From NCBI RefSeq assembly GCF_003334335.1, contig NZ_QOWQ01000003.1: 64,000 nt of DNA. One strand, written 5' to 3'. A model generated the notes under the pieces. The model was not told where the DNA came from. It saw nothing but the letters and a program-made list of their open reading frames with translations, and did not search any database. The first letter of the stretch is position 1; each line of letters starts with the position of its first letter. Shown here in pieces: positions 2,746 to 39,158 of the stretch. Both the position numbers and the translations under genes were made by a program. The DNA is from Escherichia coli (GTDB lineage: Bacteria; Pseudomonadota; Gammaproteobacteria; Enterobacterales; Enterobacteriaceae).

Positions 2746-3303
2746 TCACACCCCCGCTAAATCCACCCACCAGCGGCGATTATCCGCACGCGGCATTTTT
2801 TCGGGGTGCTGCTCATACAGGGAACGGCGGGCCAGCTCCACGCCGGAATCGGGGTAAGCCGGTACCGATGTAACGGTAATTTCGTACAGTTCCGCCACCA
2901 GCACGGTGCGCACGCATGGATCTGTTGTGGTATCCCATACATCCTTACGGGAGCGAAAGCCAAAGCTCATCCCCGAGATGTCCCCACGCTTAACCAGTTC
3001 GATAACGTCGCGCCCTGTACTGGTATCCGGTGGGGTCAGTTCAAAGCGTAACCCTGTTTCGTCCTCTTCCAGTTTCAGCGTGCCGGAACGGGTACGCCCC
3101 AGCAACATGCTGTGGTCATGCTCATACAGGCCGCGAACGTCATTACCCGCCGCAAGCCATTCAGTAAACGCTCCCCGCTGGAATTTTTCGTAAAACTCCC
3201 CCCATAGCAGCTCTGAAAGCTTATCCCAGCGAACAACGTAGCCTGTAAGCGTGTTGCTGGCGCTGGTGGTGATTTCCGATGACCGGATTTCCATACTCTT
3301 CAT
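2746..3303 (-). CDS. Prohead (head maturation) protease, HK97 family
   Basis: About 185 aa; ORF track gives 2746..3318 but ATG at 3303 has the better RBS (GGGTGA); HK97 protease-like sequence. Confidence 0.85.
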   Translation of the reverse strand: MKSMEIRSSEITTSASNTLTGYVVRWDKLSELLWGEFYEKFQRGAFTEWLAAGNDVRGLYEHDHSMLLGRTRSGTLKLEEDETGLRFELTPPDTSTGRDVIELVKRGDISGMSFGFRSRKDVWDTTTDPCVRTVLVAELYEITVTSVPAYPDSGVELARRSLYEQHPEKMPRADNRRWWVDLAGV

Positions 3304-3318
3304 AATTTTTTCACCCAT

Positions 3319-3347
3319 AAAACACTAAAGGGGCTTTTAAGCCCCTT
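3319..3347 (-). terminator. Intercistronic hairpin/attenuator after major capsid gene
   Basis: AAGGGGC-loop-GCCCCTT stem followed by U-rich tract on minus strand between capsid stop and protease start. Confidence 0.5.
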
Positions 3348-3357
3348 CTGTATGCTG

Positions 3358-4515
3358 TTAATCGTCGTCCTGTGGCAGTTCCAGAATCTTGATCGCGTTC
3401 GAATCCACCACGCCACCGCCTAAATATTTCTGCGTGAAAATTTTGATGAAGCCCGGCTCTGTGAGGTTGTCCGGTCTGGTGCGAACACCTGTTTCGTGAT
3501 CAACAATGTAGTAACCGCGTTTGAAGTCACCCAGGGCAATAACGTTATCAGGCATAAACTCCAGATATTCGACCGGAAGGCCCAGCAACGTATCAGGATC
3601 ACCCGCCTGTAAACGGTCACGCCAGATGTAATCACCGTTCGCGTTCTTCACCTTCTGGAGTTTTGCCGCCGTCGTGGAGTTAACCACCCAGACCGCGTTT
3701 TTGCGGTATTTTTTACGTAATGCAAATTTCAGGTCGATCAGCGGGTCCGCAGATGTCCACGCCAGAGATTCGGAAGGTTTAATTACCTGCAACGTACCAA
3801 AATCACGCTCTTTGTCGTTCTTCTCTGCACGGGGTACGGATAAAAAGCCTTTTGCTTTTTTGTCACCGTCGCCCACAACCAGATCGCTTTCTTCGGTTTC
3901 CGTGAAGGTGTCGCCAATCTCGCCCGTCAGCCATGAAAGGATGTCCACATCGGAAAAATCCACGATTTCCTGTGTGGTGCGCGGGTACGCATAGACCGGA
4001 TACAGCTTAATGCTCACCTCGTTAATCTGCGGGGTGCTGGTCTGTTCGCGTGTCTTACCCTCTTCACCGTGGTTAACGGTCGCACCGCCAGCGGAAACAA
4101 GCTGCTTAAACTCGTTGCTGCTGATTTTCTTCACGGTACAGATGCGGCGCATGGTGGATTCATCCGTCAGCATTCGCATGATTTCGGTGTTCAGTTCGGG
4201 GATAACGGTATAACCACCATCAGCGGGAACGCCTGTACTTAATGCGCGGGTTTCACCTGTCAGGATGTAGTTGCGGAGTTCTGCCGGGTCAGTGGTCTGG
4301 CTGCTTTTACCTGGCTTGCTGCGCTCTTCGTCTGCAATGGCTTCAAGGCGGGAAATGTCTTTATCGAGGGATTCAGCTTTAGCGCGTAATTCGTCAAATG
4401 TTGCGCCCTCAGCATCGTTAAGACTGCGGTTTTCTTTTTCCGCGTTCTCCAGCATGTCGCGCATCTGATTTTTAATGGCGGTTTTCTGCTGGCGTAATTC
4501 GATTATTCTCGGCAT
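3358..4515 (-). CDS. Major capsid protein, HK97 fold, with N-terminal coiled-coil delta domain
   Basis: 385 aa; charged coiled-coil N-terminus then HK97-type capsid body; adjacent to prohead protease. Confidence 0.9.
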   Translation of the reverse strand: MPRIIELRQQKTAIKNQMRDMLENAEKENRSLNDAEGATFDELRAKAESLDKDISRLEAIADEERSKPGKSSQTTDPAELRNYILTGETRALSTGVPADGGYTVIPELNTEIMRMLTDESTMRRICTVKKISSNEFKQLVSAGGATVNHGEEGKTREQTSTPQINEVSIKLYPVYAYPRTTQEIVDFSDVDILSWLTGEIGDTFTETEESDLVVGDGDKKAKGFLSVPRAEKNDKERDFGTLQVIKPSESLAWTSADPLIDLKFALRKKYRKNAVWVVNSTTAAKLQKVKNANGDYIWRDRLQAGDPDTLLGLPVEYLEFMPDNVIALGDFKRGYYIVDHETGVRTRPDNLTEPGFIKIFTQKYLGGGVVDSNAIKILELPQDDD

Positions 4516-4522
4516 AAAAAAA

Positions 4523-4552
4523 GTCCTGGGGTTAAGTAAGGAACTCCAGGAC
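4523..4552 (-). promoter_or_regulatory. Hairpin plus U-run immediately 5' of capsid start codon
   Basis: GTCCTGG ... CCAGGAC stem (7 bp, about 16 nt loop) followed by TTTTTTT then ATG; no canonical SD at normal spacing. Confidence 0.35.
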
Positions 4553-4729
4553 GCGGCAAAAACTCAACCGTTTTTCATAAGGAAATCAGCAATCGCACCG
4601 ATCGTTTTCCCGCCTGGTAATGAATATTGGCGAGAACATTAACAGGCGGAAAAGTGGCCCCAGCGTCCTGGCACCACGGGCGAGAATAATCATGATTCAG
4701 TTCGGGTAAAATATGCCGATCCTGTCAGT

Positions 4730-4756
4730 GAACAACGTGGAACAACCGCGAACAAA
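4730..4756. promoter_or_regulatory. Three GAACAAC direct repeats at 10-bp phasing upstream of head operon
   Basis: gAACAACgtg gAACAACcgc gAACAAAtaa on plus strand (GTTGTTC on the transcribed minus strand), about 215 bp upstream of capsid start. Confidence 0.45.
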
Positions 4757-4761
4757 TAATT

Positions 4762-4796
4762 TACAAAAAATGACAAAAAGCCGGATTGCTCCGGCT
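4762..4796 (-). terminator. Rho-independent terminator after small cargo gene
   Basis: GCCGGAgcaaTCCGGC hairpin followed by TTTTTGTCATTTTTTG on minus strand. Confidence 0.7.
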
Positions 4797-4806
4797 GTAT
4801 GCGTGC

Positions 4807-5031
4807 TCAGTCCCTGATCCCTTTCAGAAATTCTATCAATGCATCTATCTGTTCAGGATTTACCGCCAGCATTTCACCGGACAGAGCACATCTCACAAAA
4901 CCATGCTGATCCTTTTCAATCAGTGCGCCCGTCTCCAGGAATGCGCGGTAATCATTGATGCTCATCGTCTCCATGTTGTCAGCATGGTATTTATCACGCT
5001 GTTTTAATATCTCATCAAATTTCATCGGCAT
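4807..5031 (-). CDS. Hypothetical protein, 74 aa, terminator-bounded cargo (moron-like) gene
   Basis: ATG at 5031 with GAGGAA RBS; terminators on both sides; no recognisable family. Confidence 0.55.
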   Translation of the reverse strand: MPMKFDEILKQRDKYHADNMETMSINDYRAFLETGALIEKDQHGFVRCALSGEMLAVNPEQIDALIEFLKGIRD

Positions 5032-5123
5032 TGTTTTTTCCTCTGTTGTGTCTGTTTGTTTCAGATAGTAACTATGCCTGACCGTGACGAAAACCCGGTA
5101 ATGCGCCATACCGTTTCAACTGG

Positions 5124-5149
5124 TGCAAAAAAAGCCGGATTTCTCCGGC
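5124..5149 (-). terminator. Rho-independent terminator ending the early/replication operon
   Basis: GCCGGAgaaaTCCGGC hairpin followed by TTTTTTT on minus strand; near-identical to hairpin at 4780-4795. Confidence 0.7.
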
Positions 5150-5156
5150 TGTGTGA

Positions 5157-5429
5157 TTAGCTGTCCTGGTAATTTCGCCATATTTCATCACCAGCACCAT
5201 CCATACCCATTTCGGCATAAGTGCGATCGACCGCCTTTTTCAGGTCTCCGTAATTATCCGGCGGCTCCGGTGGCCTCTGTGCCTTCCTGGAACATTCCAG
5301 CCGTCGCATCGTAACCTGATGCCGTTCCTTGTCTGTCTCCACCAGCAGCATGACTTCACCCCATCGCGCCGACGCCCTCCGGTAAAAGCCTTTTGCCTCG
5401 AGTTCCTCCGCTATGCGGTCATGTACCAT
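5157..5429 (-). CDS. Hypothetical protein, 90 aa
   Basis: ATG at 5429 with strong RBS (GAGGGGGTGA), 10 nt after SSB stop; no recognisable family. Confidence 0.55.
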   Translation of the reverse strand: MVHDRIAEELEAKGFYRRASARWGEVMLLVETDKERHQVTMRRLECSRKAQRPPEPPDNYGDLKKAVDRTYAEMGMDGAGDEIWRNYQDS

Positions 5430-5439
5430 CGTCACCCCC

Positions 5440-5850
5440 TCAGAACGGAATATCATCACCGTAGGGGTCATCGTCTCCCGCTGGTGGCTGATTACCCTGT
5501 GTGCCTGTGGTTTTGCGTCTGTTCCCGCCAGGACGTGCCGCACGGGCACTGATTACGCTGTCTGCAATAACCTGATACCCCTGTCGTGTTTCCCCGTTCT
5601 GTCCGGTCCACTGGCTTACCTGCATCGTGCCGGATACGCTGGCAACATCGCCTTTTTGATGTTTAGCCAGGAAATCGGCCTGTTTGCCAAATGCGATAAC
5701 CGATAACCATAACGTCGCCTGTCCGTCATGTGCTTGGCTGCATGGCAACGATACCGCCATACGCGCCAGAGTCATCGGTGTGCCCTTGCTGCTCTGTTTT
5801 ACCAGCGGGTCGTCCACCAGGCGCCCGTAAGCTGCAATTTGTGCTGTCAT
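5440..5850 (-). CDS. ssb: Single-stranded DNA-binding protein
   Basis: 136 aa; OB-fold region aligns with E. coli SSB; Gly/Gln-rich linker and acidic C-terminal tip ending DDIPF. Confidence 0.85.
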   Translation of the reverse strand: MTAQIAAYGRLVDDPLVKQSSKGTPMTLARMAVSLPCSQAHDGQATLWLSVIAFGKQADFLAKHQKGDVASVSGTMQVSQWTGQNGETRQGYQVIADSVISARAARPGGNRRKTTGTQGNQPPAGDDDPYGDDIPF

Positions 5851-5859
5851 ATTGCCACC

Positions 5860-6165
5860 TCAGTGAAGCGATCCGGCGTTGTTCTTTTTCATCTCTTCCA
5901 TCATTTTTTCAGTGAGCATTACGCACTGAAAACCCATGTTTTTGATGTCTACGGGTTTCATGCCTTTGTCAGTGGATATCACAGGCAGAATATCCTGATA
6001 CACATCGCGGTCAGGGTAACTAAGCACACAAAGCGCCCATGATGCCACGGGTGAGGATCCTTCGTCTGTTTCAACCCACCAGCCTGGTGTAGCTGCGCTT
6101 ATTTGCTGAATCGTGATCCGTCCGTTGTGCTTGTAAAGTTTTTCACCAAATTTTGGTTCGCTCAT
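5860..6165 (-). CDS. Hypothetical protein, 101 aa
   Basis: Start overlaps upstream gene stop (ATGA); operon context; no recognisable family. Confidence 0.5.
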   Translation of the reverse strand: MSEPKFGEKLYKHNGRITIQQISAATPGWWVETDEGSSPVASWALCVLSYPDRDVYQDILPVISTDKGMKPVDIKNMGFQCVMLTEKMMEEMKKNNAGSLH

Positions 6166-6413
6166 GATTCCAACTCTCCGGTTTTAACGTTGATTGTTGT
6201 TACCTGTTCCGCTTCGGCAATCTCACGTTCTGTCAGCGTGGCAAAGTTTGCCGCTGCTGTGGTCATGAATGCGCTTATCAGGTCGGGATGTTCTTTCGCG
6301 TATCCTTCCCCCGCGTGGCGGTCTATCGTTCTGATTGCCACCTTTAAGGCGTGCTCTGTCATGTCTAACGCTTTATATTTTGGCTCTGTTCTGTCTCTGT
6401 GTTTTTGAGTCAT
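6162..6413 (-). CDS. Hypothetical protein, about 84 aa
   Basis: ORF track gives 6162..6545 but that N-terminal extension runs through the iteron array; ATG at 6413 has GAGGTG RBS. Confidence 0.45.
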   Translation of the reverse strand: MTQKHRDRTEPKYKALDMTEHALKVAIRTIDRHAGEGYAKEHPDLISAFMTTAAANFATLTEREIAEAEQVTTINVKTGELES

Positions 6414-6620
6414 TTGCCCACCTCTACCCACTTTTTTCGCCCACTTTTTACGTTTTCCCACTTCGTCCAACGTGGGAAATTTGGGATTTATATCATCTTG
6501 TTTCATAGGTATTTTTTTAGTGCCCACTTTTTGGGATATATACACGTGGGAAAGTGGGTAATTTTGTTAAAATTACGTTAAATCGCCCACCTTTCCCACT
6601 TTTAATGCCCACTTTTTACA
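6414..6620. repeat. Candidate replication origin: iteron array around an AT-rich spacer
   Basis: At least 10 copies of (G/T)CCCAC(T)n / GTGGGAAA in both orientations flanking an AT-rich segment (about 6478-6518), directly 3' of the replication protein gene. Confidence 0.6.
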
Positions 6621-8013
6621 GTGGTCCTACATCATCACCGTCAATGTAGATCACGTCGTCTTTTTCCAGTTTGGCTAACCATCGTTTAAGGTGTTTTGTG
6701 TCATACCCCAGCTTTTTCATATCGTCACGTAACAGCGGGATCGTGCACTTGTCGCCGTGCTGTGTGCGTGAACGTATGCACCCCCATAGCGCGGTATGGT
6801 TTTCCGTCTTGTTGCCTGCCTCCTCGATGCGCTCCAGTTCAACGGGAGGGCGCGGCTTATCCACCACCACCAGCGACGTGATTAACTCCCCGTCAGCGTC
6901 GGTAAAAAGCTCCACCACCCGCAAATCATAGGCAGCCTCTTTGAGTTCCTCCGCGTCCTTCATTTTGGTGCATGAGATAACCAGCGCTTCGCTTCCTGCG
7001 TCCTCCCTGCGTATCCGGTATTCAGCATCCAGCGAAGCACGAAATGCACTGGAACCGCGCGCGCCTTTCGTCTCATCCTTGCCGGAATGGTGAACCACCA
7101 GCACCGTGGCCCCTGTGCGCCGTTTAAGCTCGTCACACCCACGGATAAACGCCCCCATATCACGGGAATCATTTTCATCATTGCCACCAAAGCAACGCGC
7201 CAGAGTATCAAGAATAATCATGCGTACAGGTTTACCCGTTTCCCGCTCCACCTGACGGGCAGCGATAACCAGTTCATCAACATCAAGCGGGACAGCCGGA
7301 AAAACTGGACGGTTTACCAGATACAGATTTTTCACCTGCTCACCGTGCACAACCTCCCAGGCTTTTACACGACGCGGAACGCCGATACCGCCTTCACCAA
7401 CCACATAGAGAACAGCGCCATGCGCCACCCTGCGGCCTCCCCACTGGCGGCCCGTGGAAACGTGACACGCCCACGAACCCGCAAGGAATGATTTATAGGA
7501 ACCGCTTGCCCCGTATATGCTGCATAGCGACGATGCCGGAATAATCCCCTTTACCACGTAATCTAATTGCGTGTCGTATCCGGCAGATCCAACGCTCATC
7601 GGTAGCGTGGTTTTTCGCTGGTGGTGTTCTTCCCCTGGCTTTTTCCCCCGCTCCCGTTCCAGATATTCGCGCCAGTTCTCCCGCTTCTGGCTGTGTATCC
7701 CTTCGGGGTAATAATTCGCATCAGTTACGCCCGCCGCCGCCAGCTTGTGCGCAATGGCATTAATATTTGATGGCCTGATGTGGCCTGCCTTGTACAGCCG
7801 GACACAATAGCGCCCCTCGTCGATGATTCTCAGGTCTGCCAGTTCATCCAGTTGATCATCAGCCAGCACAATGGGAGGCACATTATCGCCAGCCAGTCGC
7901 CCGTCCTGTTCCTGCCACTGTTTCGCATGTGCCCACGCATCACTACCCGCAAAAATGATGACTTCGGTCATCTTGTCGTAAGGCTGTTTTTTTAAGTTCG
8001 GTGCGCTTTTCAT
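6616..8013 (-). CDS. Satellite replication protein, RecA/DnaB-like P-loop ATPase with N-terminal extension
   Basis: 465 aa; Walker A GASGSYKS and ILDTLARCFGG...VHHSGK helicase-like motifs; followed by the iteron array. Confidence 0.85.
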   Translation of the reverse strand: MKSAPNLKKQPYDKMTEVIIFAGSDAWAHAKQWQEQDGRLAGDNVPPIVLADDQLDELADLRIIDEGRYCVRLYKAGHIRPSNINAIAHKLAAAGVTDANYYPEGIHSQKRENWREYLERERGKKPGEEHHQRKTTLPMSVGSAGYDTQLDYVVKGIIPASSLCSIYGASGSYKSFLAGSWACHVSTGRQWGGRRVAHGAVLYVVGEGGIGVPRRVKAWEVVHGEQVKNLYLVNRPVFPAVPLDVDELVIAARQVERETGKPVRMIILDTLARCFGGNDENDSRDMGAFIRGCDELKRRTGATVLVVHHSGKDETKGARGSSAFRASLDAEYRIRREDAGSEALVISCTKMKDAEELKEAAYDLRVVELFTDADGELITSLVVVDKPRPPVELERIEEAGNKTENHTALWGCIRSRTQHGDKCTIPLLRDDMKKLGYDTKHLKRWLAKLEKDDVIYIDGDDVGPL

Positions 8014-8309
8014 TTCTTGCCCCTGAATCCGTTAATCATGTTTTTCATCTTCTGAATATTGGCGCGTGCTTTCTCCCTGCTGGTGGGCACGTTACGCGGT
8101 ACGGCCTGCACCAGAGAAAAATCACGCCGGAACTGATAAACAGGCATCACGCAATCATATTCGTAACTTTCACGACGGTAGGTTACGCGCCGTTCCTCCA
8201 CGCCCTTAATCATTACCGTGCCGCCGTACTGGTCGCGGTAAATATCACCGCGCGTAAATTTAGGGTGAGTGTTGCCACTGGCAGTTAAGCCAGAATATTT
8301 AAGTTTCAT
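8010..8309 (-). CDS. Hypothetical protein, 99 aa
   Basis: ATG with GGAG RBS; stop overlaps rep start. Confidence 0.5.
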   Translation of the reverse strand: MKLKYSGLTASGNTHPKFTRGDIYRDQYGGTVMIKGVEERRVTYRRESYEYDCVMPVYQFRRDFSLVQAVPRNVPTSREKARANIQKMKNMINGFRGKK

Positions 8310-9413: not shown

Positions 9414-9508
9414 AGCTACCTCGATACTCTCGTTATCGTTGGTGGTTAGAAGCCCGGTTAGTGTTAGCGCACTGCCGGGTTTCGTCGTTTCTGCACCTTG
9501 CGCCAACA

Positions 9509-36362: not shown

Positions 36363-39158
<2,796 letters not shown>

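Follow-up and report, generated by a model that had tools for sequence, protein, structure and literature searches.

A PchE-type perC gene and a terminator-flanked PHROG 1957 gene between the SSB and capsid genes of a capsid-forming phage-inducible chromosomal island of Escherichia coli

Genes and signals of the locus

A stretch of 64,000 nucleotides of Escherichia coli DNA (NCBI RefSeq assembly GCF_003334335.1, contig NZ_QOWQ01000003.1), hereafter the window, was analyzed with a focus on positions 4762 to 5429, where two small open reading frames (ORFs) lie between the gene for single-stranded DNA-binding protein (SSB) and that for a major capsid protein. As judged from its sequence, the start of the window is a capsid-forming phage-inducible chromosomal island (cf-PICI) in tqsA and a close relative of EcCIEDL933. 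A 1.4-kb region is 99.9% identical to DNA of E. coli H19, in which the locus spans about 14.5 kb (14 to 15 kb) between the split halves of tqsA. The H19 island is annotated with an integrase, a small AlpA-type helix-turn-helix (HTH) regulator, Icd-like proteins, a DUF4222 protein, a RepA helicase, SSB, and PerC, and on the packaging side with capsid, prohead protease, portal, head closure, connector(s), HNH, TerS, and TerL; no tail or lysis genes are found in its annotation. The features that define a cf-PICI are therefore all found in the annotation of this 99.9%-identical locus, and the gene content is the architecture described for such elements (bioRxiv 10.1101/2022.09.08.507074). EcCIEDL933 (O-island 51 [OI-51], CP-933C, or Sakai Sp7) is the prototype cf-PICI of E. 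coli O157:H7, and its gene order matches that of the window (SSB-PerC-T1-74aa-T2-capsid, T1 and T2 being the terminators described below), with identities of 100% for the 74-aa protein, 91% for PerC, and 99.7% for the capsid. The two islands differ in their integration site, which is tqsA in the window and between phoQ and roxA in EDL933, and in their initiator, which is a RepA-type helicase in the window and of the DUF927/primase type in EDL933.

Every feature of the locus, from SSB to capsid, is carried by the minus strand. The SSB gene (5440..5850; 136 aa; PHROG 44, E=8e-38; TIGR00621, E=3.6e-14; RefSeq annotation of the 99.9%-identical locus) precedes perC in the early/replication operon of the satellite. 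The 90-aa ORF (5157..5429) starts 10 nt past the SSB stop, with a ribosome-binding site, GGGGG(T)GA, upstream, and codes for a PerC-family regulator of the PchE type (Pfam PF06069, E=3e-44). Directly after its stop codon lies T1 (5129..5155), the upstream copy of a 27-nt direct repeat with an intrinsic terminator, whose stem at 5150..5133 reads AGCCGGAGAAATCCGGCT with a GAAA loop and is followed by T7. A leader of about 100 nt (5032..5128), with GAGG as ribosome-binding site 9 to 10 nt ahead of the ATG, leads into the gene for an acidic protein of 74 aa (4807..5031; PHROG 1957, E=7e-42; identical to WP_001132080.1). The downstream copy of the repeat, T2 (4775..4801), has its stem at 4796..4779 (AGCCGGAGCAATCCGGCT, GCAA loop, then T5) and forms the junction of the early region with the packaging module. 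There follow a capsid-operon leader of about 260 nt (4516..4774), which contains a conserved box, TTGTTC motifs, a -10-like site, and two hairpins, and the gene for the HK97-type major capsid protein (3358..4515; TIGR01554, E=1.6e-87; PHROG 10; annotation), the first of the packaging module.

The two 27-nt repeats are 93% identical and spaced by 354 bp, and their 18-nt terminator pattern occurs at only 2 sites in the 64-kb window, versus 0.02 expected by chance. RNA folding gave stable hairpins for both, with -12.6 kcal/mol (z = -3.2) for T1 and -14.4 kcal/mol (z = -3.5) for T2. The 74-aa unit has a G+C content of 44 to 45%, versus 55 to 56% for perC and SSB. A scan of the minus strand from 3000 to 7000 found no sigma-70-like promoter, and the best pair of sigma-70 hexamers between T1 and the ATG of the 74-aa gene matched at just 7 of 12 positions, which leaves the leader without a convincing sigma-70 promoter; an activator-dependent promoter is conceivable. 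An earlier note on this DNA, made from the sequence alone, had placed the two ORFs at these coordinates, had credited the 74-aa gene with its own ribosome-binding site, and had described near-identical terminators on either side of it, and all of this was confirmed. Its description of both genes as terminator bounded, in turn, fits the 74-aa gene but not perC, because within the early operon perC is closely coupled to SSB, and it has a terminator, T1, at its 3' side. Likewise, the note had recognized neither protein, and this stands for the 74-aa protein, which matches only a family with no assigned function, but not for the 90-aa protein.

Both small ORFs are genuine genes on sequence and model evidence, given the strength of the PerC match of one and, for the other, pN/pS values of 0.10 to 0.22, at least 161 homologues, and a structural model with a pLDDT of 91.7. 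An extension of the 74-aa gene to 100 aa, found in some records, is disfavored because the 'MP...' start is conserved across the family. Another ORF of 42/48 aa (5072-5218, minus strand) overlaps the perC 3' end, T1, and the leader of the 74-aa gene; RefSeq names it 'hypothetical protein' or a frameshifted 'trigger factor' pseudogene, and it is probably an annotation artefact.

The 90-aa PerC-family gene

The match of the 90-aa protein to the Pfam PerC model extends over residues 1 to 89, aligned to positions 1 to 89 of the 90 of the model, and RefSeq likewise names it a PerC-family regulator. It differs from the PerC of EDL933 OI-51 at 8 of 90 residues, and the neighbors of the two genes, SSB and the 74-aa gene, are alike. 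The EDL933 OI-51 copy is PchE (PMC3378721) and corresponds to ECs1588 on Sp7 (PMC2323221). By sequence, the 90-aa gene is thus assigned to the PchE-type PerC-family regulators. PchE is a group-3 PerC homologue of enterohemorrhagic E. coli, and the PerC domain is full length in the window protein too. The O157 allele of PchE represses csgD/curli and adhesion and raises flagellar expression, and the expression of pchE drops upon SOS induction (PMC6265319, PMC7369912). The PerC-like genes of EcCIEDL933 and of EcCICFT073, a classical E. coli PICI, leave LEE1, an operon named after the enterocyte effacement locus (LEE), unaffected (PMC11773190); the activators of LEE1 are the PerC of enteropathogenic E. 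coli and PchA-C, in contrast to the PchE type. PerC-family genes are also common among Gram-negative PICIs (PMC11773190).

To follow the retention of these genes, we used a set of 37 close E. coli cf-PICI loci from IMG/VR, with capsids at least 97% identical to that of the window. Among them, 36 of 37 keep perC, as does every classical E. coli PICI inspected, and because of this the conservation of perC exceeds that expected of free cargo. In the mechanism that we propose, PerC would be made together with the replication genes and would act on host transcription as published for PchE. Given its near-universal retention in E. coli PICIs, it may serve the satellite itself as well. A stronger version, in which PerC is a core satellite regulator with host cross-talk rather than cargo, draws on the same retention, on a gene position that is always the end of the early operon just ahead of the packaging module, and on PHROG relatives that carry a transcriptional-activator annotation. 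However, cf-PICIs of other genera have the same capsid leader and hairpin but lack any PerC, the leaders of the two E. coli packaging modules are unrelated, and the phenotypes in the literature concern host genes, and we consider this version rather doubtful.

The island holds another gene related to a described regulator. A 99-aa DUF4222 protein, encoded at 8010-8309 (minus strand) just upstream of the helicase gene, is an orthologue of RgdR (ECs1581), a LEE activator and motility repressor (PMC3378721). The residues named for RgdR in that study (D10, R20-G-D, K35, H45, and R61) are all present in the EDL933 copy; in the window orthologue the RGD is kept, and positions 10 and 45 are A10 and R45 instead. 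In the regulatory region of the satellite, at 9414-9486 (plus strand), the SymR antitoxin RNA of Rfam is also matched, though weakly (E=0.0046; 33 bits, with the gathering score at 61).

The 74-aa family and its place in satellites

The 74-aa protein, which is identical to the EDL933 copy, matches PHROG 1957 with an E value of 7.1e-42 (residues 1 to 74 on positions 1 to 74 of the 82 of the model), and 10 of 10 diverged homologues tested also matched this model over their full length (down to E=1.5e-17). No match was found among Pfam, NCBIfam, and PDB sequences, tblastn against 50,697 phage genomes returned nothing informative, and a literature search for ECs1589 or WP_001132080 found no paper. 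A word-indexed search retrieved E. coli copies only, at 92% identity or more, and an exhaustive phmmer and profile search recovered at least 161 relatives with 35 to 49% identity, all annotated as hypothetical, in Klebsiella, Citrobacter, Enterobacter, Raoultella, Serratia, Pectobacterium, Hafnia, Kosakonia, and others. The family shares M1, I8, Y28, D41, H43, A56, E60, Q61, I66, and L69, including a 'DHHGF' motif. Most relatives carry a C-terminal tail of about 10 residues ('MPxPP...K'), whereas the E. coli 74-aa allele lacks the tail and has DQH in place of the DHH. The pI is 4.9, close to the family median of 5.0, and pN/pS among the E. coli alleles indicates that the gene is under purifying selection.

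AlphaFold2 with a 50-sequence alignment yielded a confident α3-β3-α model of the 74-aa protein with no structural relative; the single-sequence AlphaFold model was poor (pLDDT 57), and the alignment-based model was used instead. Foldseek against AFDB50 returned only uncharacterized family members. Neither fold similarity to solved winged-helix/HTH domains nor a basic surface, the two marks by which membership of that class was judged, was observed for this protein. Several candidate relatives were rejected. N.BspD6I reached a whole-sequence E value of 0.0014 but a domain i-Evalue of 1.1, and the fold search lent it no support; a repeat protein of 1,383 aa, P0019, looks like a compositional or repeat artefact; a profile-profile comparison gave no relationship to PerC; and the label 'DUF3861' on one AFDB family member was unsupported by a Pfam scan of 50 members.

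Next, the presence of the 74-aa gene in E. coli satellites was compared. In the cf-PICI of strain FAH, the perC stop is followed by a single terminator with a T2-type loop, and the 354-bp unit is exactly missing. The classical PICIs of CFT073, PKF11, and NR329, which have a lambda-like capsid/decoration module, likewise contain one T2-type terminator and no 354-bp unit. In satellites without the unit, the one terminator copy at this spot is a hybrid. Conversely, strain E2865 carries the unit beside a lambda-like module, and its homology with the window stops just after T2. In 5,426 complete genomes, 592 places in 539 genomes hold the unit and 873 places in 766 genomes hold perC, so that the unit accompanies about 68% of the perC loci, and the contiguous perC-T1-74aa junction is kept in 518 of the 539 unit-bearing genomes. 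In a sampled exception, L027, the unit still lies beside a perC gene, whose 3' end has diverged. One junction, at 36577-36878 of NZ_CP031350.1, lies on a 187-kb record and was counted as the only plasmid place; it may point to plasmid integration of a PICI or to a fault of the assembly.

In the IMG/VR set, the unit is present in 16 of the 37 loci, 14 of them with two terminator copies, and absent from 21, of which 20 have one copy. Its presence is scattered over all initiator types and both PerC alleles, and no alternative gene was seen in this slot in the E. coli loci examined. By these comparisons, the slot in E. coli appears binary, with the unit either present or cleanly absent. We infer that the unit is an optional module that was lost, or moved between satellites, via recombination across the 27-nt repeat. 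The classical PICI EcCICFT073 has the common backbone (rep, a hypothetical gene, SSB, and PerC) with a T2-type terminator at the module junction, and it differs from the window island in lacking the 74-aa unit and in having a lambda-like packaging-redirection module (E-like capsid and D-like decoration) instead of the full HK97 head module. It is an experimentally characterized PICI (PMC11773190), and the 74-aa protein can be regarded as non-essential because this island was mobilized experimentally without the 354-bp unit.

In satellites of other genera, the homologue occupies a comparable place with different neighbors. In Gilliamella, Klebsiella pneumoniae, Pectobacterium, Enterobacter soli, Serratia oryzae, and two metagenomic contigs, it follows, at a distance of 220 to 300 bp and in the same orientation, a replication gene that codes for a D5-type primase or an AAA_25/RepA helicase, and it precedes the genes for capsid, protease, and portal. 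The intervening 220 to 300 bp consist of origin-like iterons, the last of which is about 30 to 60 nt from the start codon of the homologue in seven of these loci. Both PerC and SSB are absent from these elements. In the window, the RepA helicase gene is followed immediately by about nine AAGTGGGC(A/G) iterons (6414-6615, minus strand), which extend up to the ATG of an 84-aa ORF (6162-6413) and are presumed to be the replication origin; the iterons at the same position in other genera differ (GTGCGGC, GTGAACAC).

Between the small gene and the capsid gene of other genera there are 262 to 1608 bp, occupied by unrelated genes that are often on the opposite strand. The region ahead of the packaging module of cf-PICIs has been described as variable, cargo bearing, and 'expected to encode immune systems' (bioRxiv 10.1101/2025.02.11.637232). 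Our comparison places the variable slot proper between the PHROG 1957 gene and the capsid leader, that is, downstream of the small gene; as in the accessory and defence hot spots of PICIs, this slot is filled in other genera, whereas it is empty in the window. The slot genes (L014, 7299-8072; L006, 6164-7470; L018, 7269-7610; L024, 9298-9777; L013, 2814-3599) are mutually unrelated; for these five, the records list no Pfam domain, and PADLOC gave no convincing match. The slot of L017 contains an inserted insertion sequence (DDE_Tnp_1) as well. The small protein of other genera is 38 to 42% identical to that of the window, versus 62 to 66% for the capsid and 65 to 80% for the portal, and therefore evolves faster than the head genes. 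More distant members of PHROG 1957 lie near integrases or HK97-type head modules in other arrangements, and the family is satellite specific.

A further arrangement was seen in L072, a diverged E. coli-type cf-PICI with a capsid 69% identical to that of the window. Here, a high-G+C PHROG 1957 allele of 86 aa (within 5209-5717) overlaps with its start the end of a short perC; no terminator separates the two, and a different terminator and then the same leader box follow. As read from this sequence, the PHROG 1957 gene of L072 just closes the early operon and is translationally coupled to perC. A similar arrangement was observed in L069. In E. coli-type islands, this position is therefore taken by two or more alleles of the small gene that differ greatly from each other.

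Possible roles of the 74-aa protein

Taken together, we consider it probable that the locus is the 3' end of the early operon of a cf-PICI, in which a PchE-type perC gene is ended by T1, followed by an optional PHROG 1957 unit whose product is likely a dispensable protein binder. In this model, the 74-aa protein would be a dispensable accessory factor of the early operon that binds another protein rather than DNA, its gene would be expressed with the early genes after induction by a helper phage, here by read-through of T1, and its partner would be a helper, host, or satellite protein. The narrower proposal that it is a protein-binding modulator made on induction is favored because the protein is non-essential and acidic, has no DNA-binding fold, and is encoded by the terminal early gene; we hold it tentatively, as one possibility among several. 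It is also conceivable, with similar confidence, that PHROG 1957 represents a novel effector specific to satellites, which has a small α3β3α fold not seen before and binds a helper-phage or host protein to favor the satellite.

Several points weigh against this interpretation. The case for a protein binder of the early operon is drawn from charge, size, and position only. Read-through of T1 may be low, because this terminator, with its 7-bp stem and T7, looks efficient. The lower G+C content and the clean presence or absence of the unit fit an independently acquired, moron-like unit. Deletion between direct repeats and insertion with duplication look alike in sequence. The family was sampled partly via the small gene itself, so that the counts do not give its frequency among cf-PICIs outside E. 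coli, and one relative, L073, lacks the PHROG 1957 gene. Finally, the published host-regulation phenotypes do not explain why PerC is retained in E. coli PICIs, which hints at a role inside the satellite.

In lambdoid and HK97-like prophages, morons are autonomous units, each with promoter, gene, and terminator, that have been inserted between conserved genes. The 74-aa gene might be such cargo, with an anti-phage, helper-interference, or host-benefit function and transcription of its own from the resident island. Like a moron, the 74-aa unit separates genes that are direct neighbors in relatives (FAH, CFT073, and 21 of the 37 IMG/VR loci), has its own terminator, and deviates in base composition, with a G+C content about 10 points under that of perC and SSB; terminators flank it on both sides, it is cleanly present or absent among near-identical satellites, and it lies in the region recognized as variable and 'expected to encode immune systems' (bioRxiv 10.1101/2025.02.11.637232). 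The moron-like arrangement proposed in the earlier note is borne out to this extent. The unit differs from morons, however, in that no promoter of its own was detected, that it shows synteny across genera instead of lineage specificity, and that its flanking terminators are duplicates of each other. Moreover, diverged homologues are syntenic in other genera with the truly variable genes downstream of them, the family member of L072 is coupled to perC inside the operon, and no other gene takes its place in the E. coli loci examined. We therefore regard moron-type cargo as unlikely. The idea of a cargo slot survives in part, as the 90-aa gene is an accessory regulator of host genes and the region is variable in the literature, but the 74-aa gene does not behave like exchangeable cargo: the check for gene turnover, which had been suggested for this slot, found a binary slot in E. 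coli and, in other genera, a kept 74-aa homologue with variable genes downstream. As for the suggestion of anti-phage cargo, no family of the PADLOC-DB v2 defence models matched the 74-aa or the 90-aa protein at an E value of 1 or less, and the locus shows no sign of such cargo.

The leader that follows T2 offers another candidate role. A box, TTTTGTAAATTATTTG (4768..4753, minus strand), lies directly after T2 and is conserved across genera, and three TTGTTC motifs (4755..4730, minus strand), in exact 10-nt phase, are found in E. coli only; together they look like a candidate binding site for an activator of the capsid operon. A -10-like TATTCT (4688..4683, minus strand) is followed by a hairpin, GTGGTGCCAGGACGCTGGGGCCAC (4677..4654, minus strand), in its E. 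coli version. Its counterpart of 24/25 nt, GTGGCACTCAGACGTGAGCCGCCAC, shows 100% identity across loci of Klebsiella, Pectobacterium, Serratia, Enterobacter, and metagenomic origin (L006, L007, L008, L013-L018, L023, and L024), whose capsids are only 62 to 66% identical to that of the window. The E. coli hairpin keeps the GACG loop, and its inner stem changes from CTCA/TGAG to CCAG/CTGG, that is, by two compensatory pairs. The hairpin lies 7 to 8 nt past a conserved -10-like TGnnTATyyT and could mark the 5' end of a late mRNA or serve as an operator or as a signal for packaging (cos); no Rfam family matched the capsid leader or this hairpin. A second hairpin, GTCCTGG(N15)CCAGGAC with T7 (4552..4523, minus strand; -14.1 kcal/mol, z = -4.0), ends at the capsid ATG, sequesters the sole AGGA Shine-Dalgarno candidate of the capsid gene, and occurs in E. 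coli-type leaders only; its role may be attenuation or the control of translation.

The 74-aa protein could control the capsid (late) operon by acting at the conserved leader and hairpin, for instance in the role of co-activator or antiterminator. A gene of this family is always upstream of the capsid leader, and the small gene and the 25-nt hairpin co-occur even in fragmentary contexts (L007/L008 and L013). Nevertheless, the protein is acidic with no DNA- or RNA-binding fold, 21 of the 37 E. coli cf-PICIs have the same leader and hairpin but not the gene, and the gene is also found beside a lambda-like capsid module that is unrelated and has another leader, all of which makes such a role quite improbable. 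Least probable is a replication accessory linked to the origin, either an initiator helper or a recruiter of host replication proteins, which would fit the start codon lying so near the last iteron in the seven loci of other genera, behind both initiator types, but four genes separate the iterons from the 74-aa gene in E. coli, the functional EcCICFT073 does without the gene, as does half of the E. coli cf-PICIs, and a specific initiator partner is unlikely because the gene pairs with unrelated initiators.

At the level of sequence, the arrangement is already known, because the locus is as in EcCIEDL933, the 90-aa protein is PchE, and the 74-aa protein falls in the catalogued family PHROG 1957; among EcCIEDL933-type elements, such a locus is ordinary. 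What emerges from the comparison is that PHROG 1957 is a so far ignored small gene, conserved beside the origin in cf-PICIs across Enterobacterales, and that the actual variable slot is bounded by this gene and the highly conserved hairpin of the capsid leader. The near-universal PerC of E. coli PICIs raises the question of whether this regulator serves the satellite itself. In E. coli, the duplicated terminator bounds a natural on/off polymorphism of the 74-aa unit, so that isogenic islands with and without it are already available. Were PHROG 1957 to be a new effector, its possible targets would include a replication, packaging, or defence component, and the terminator-repeat unit would be, in E. 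coli, a switch of an effector in and out of otherwise identical islands.

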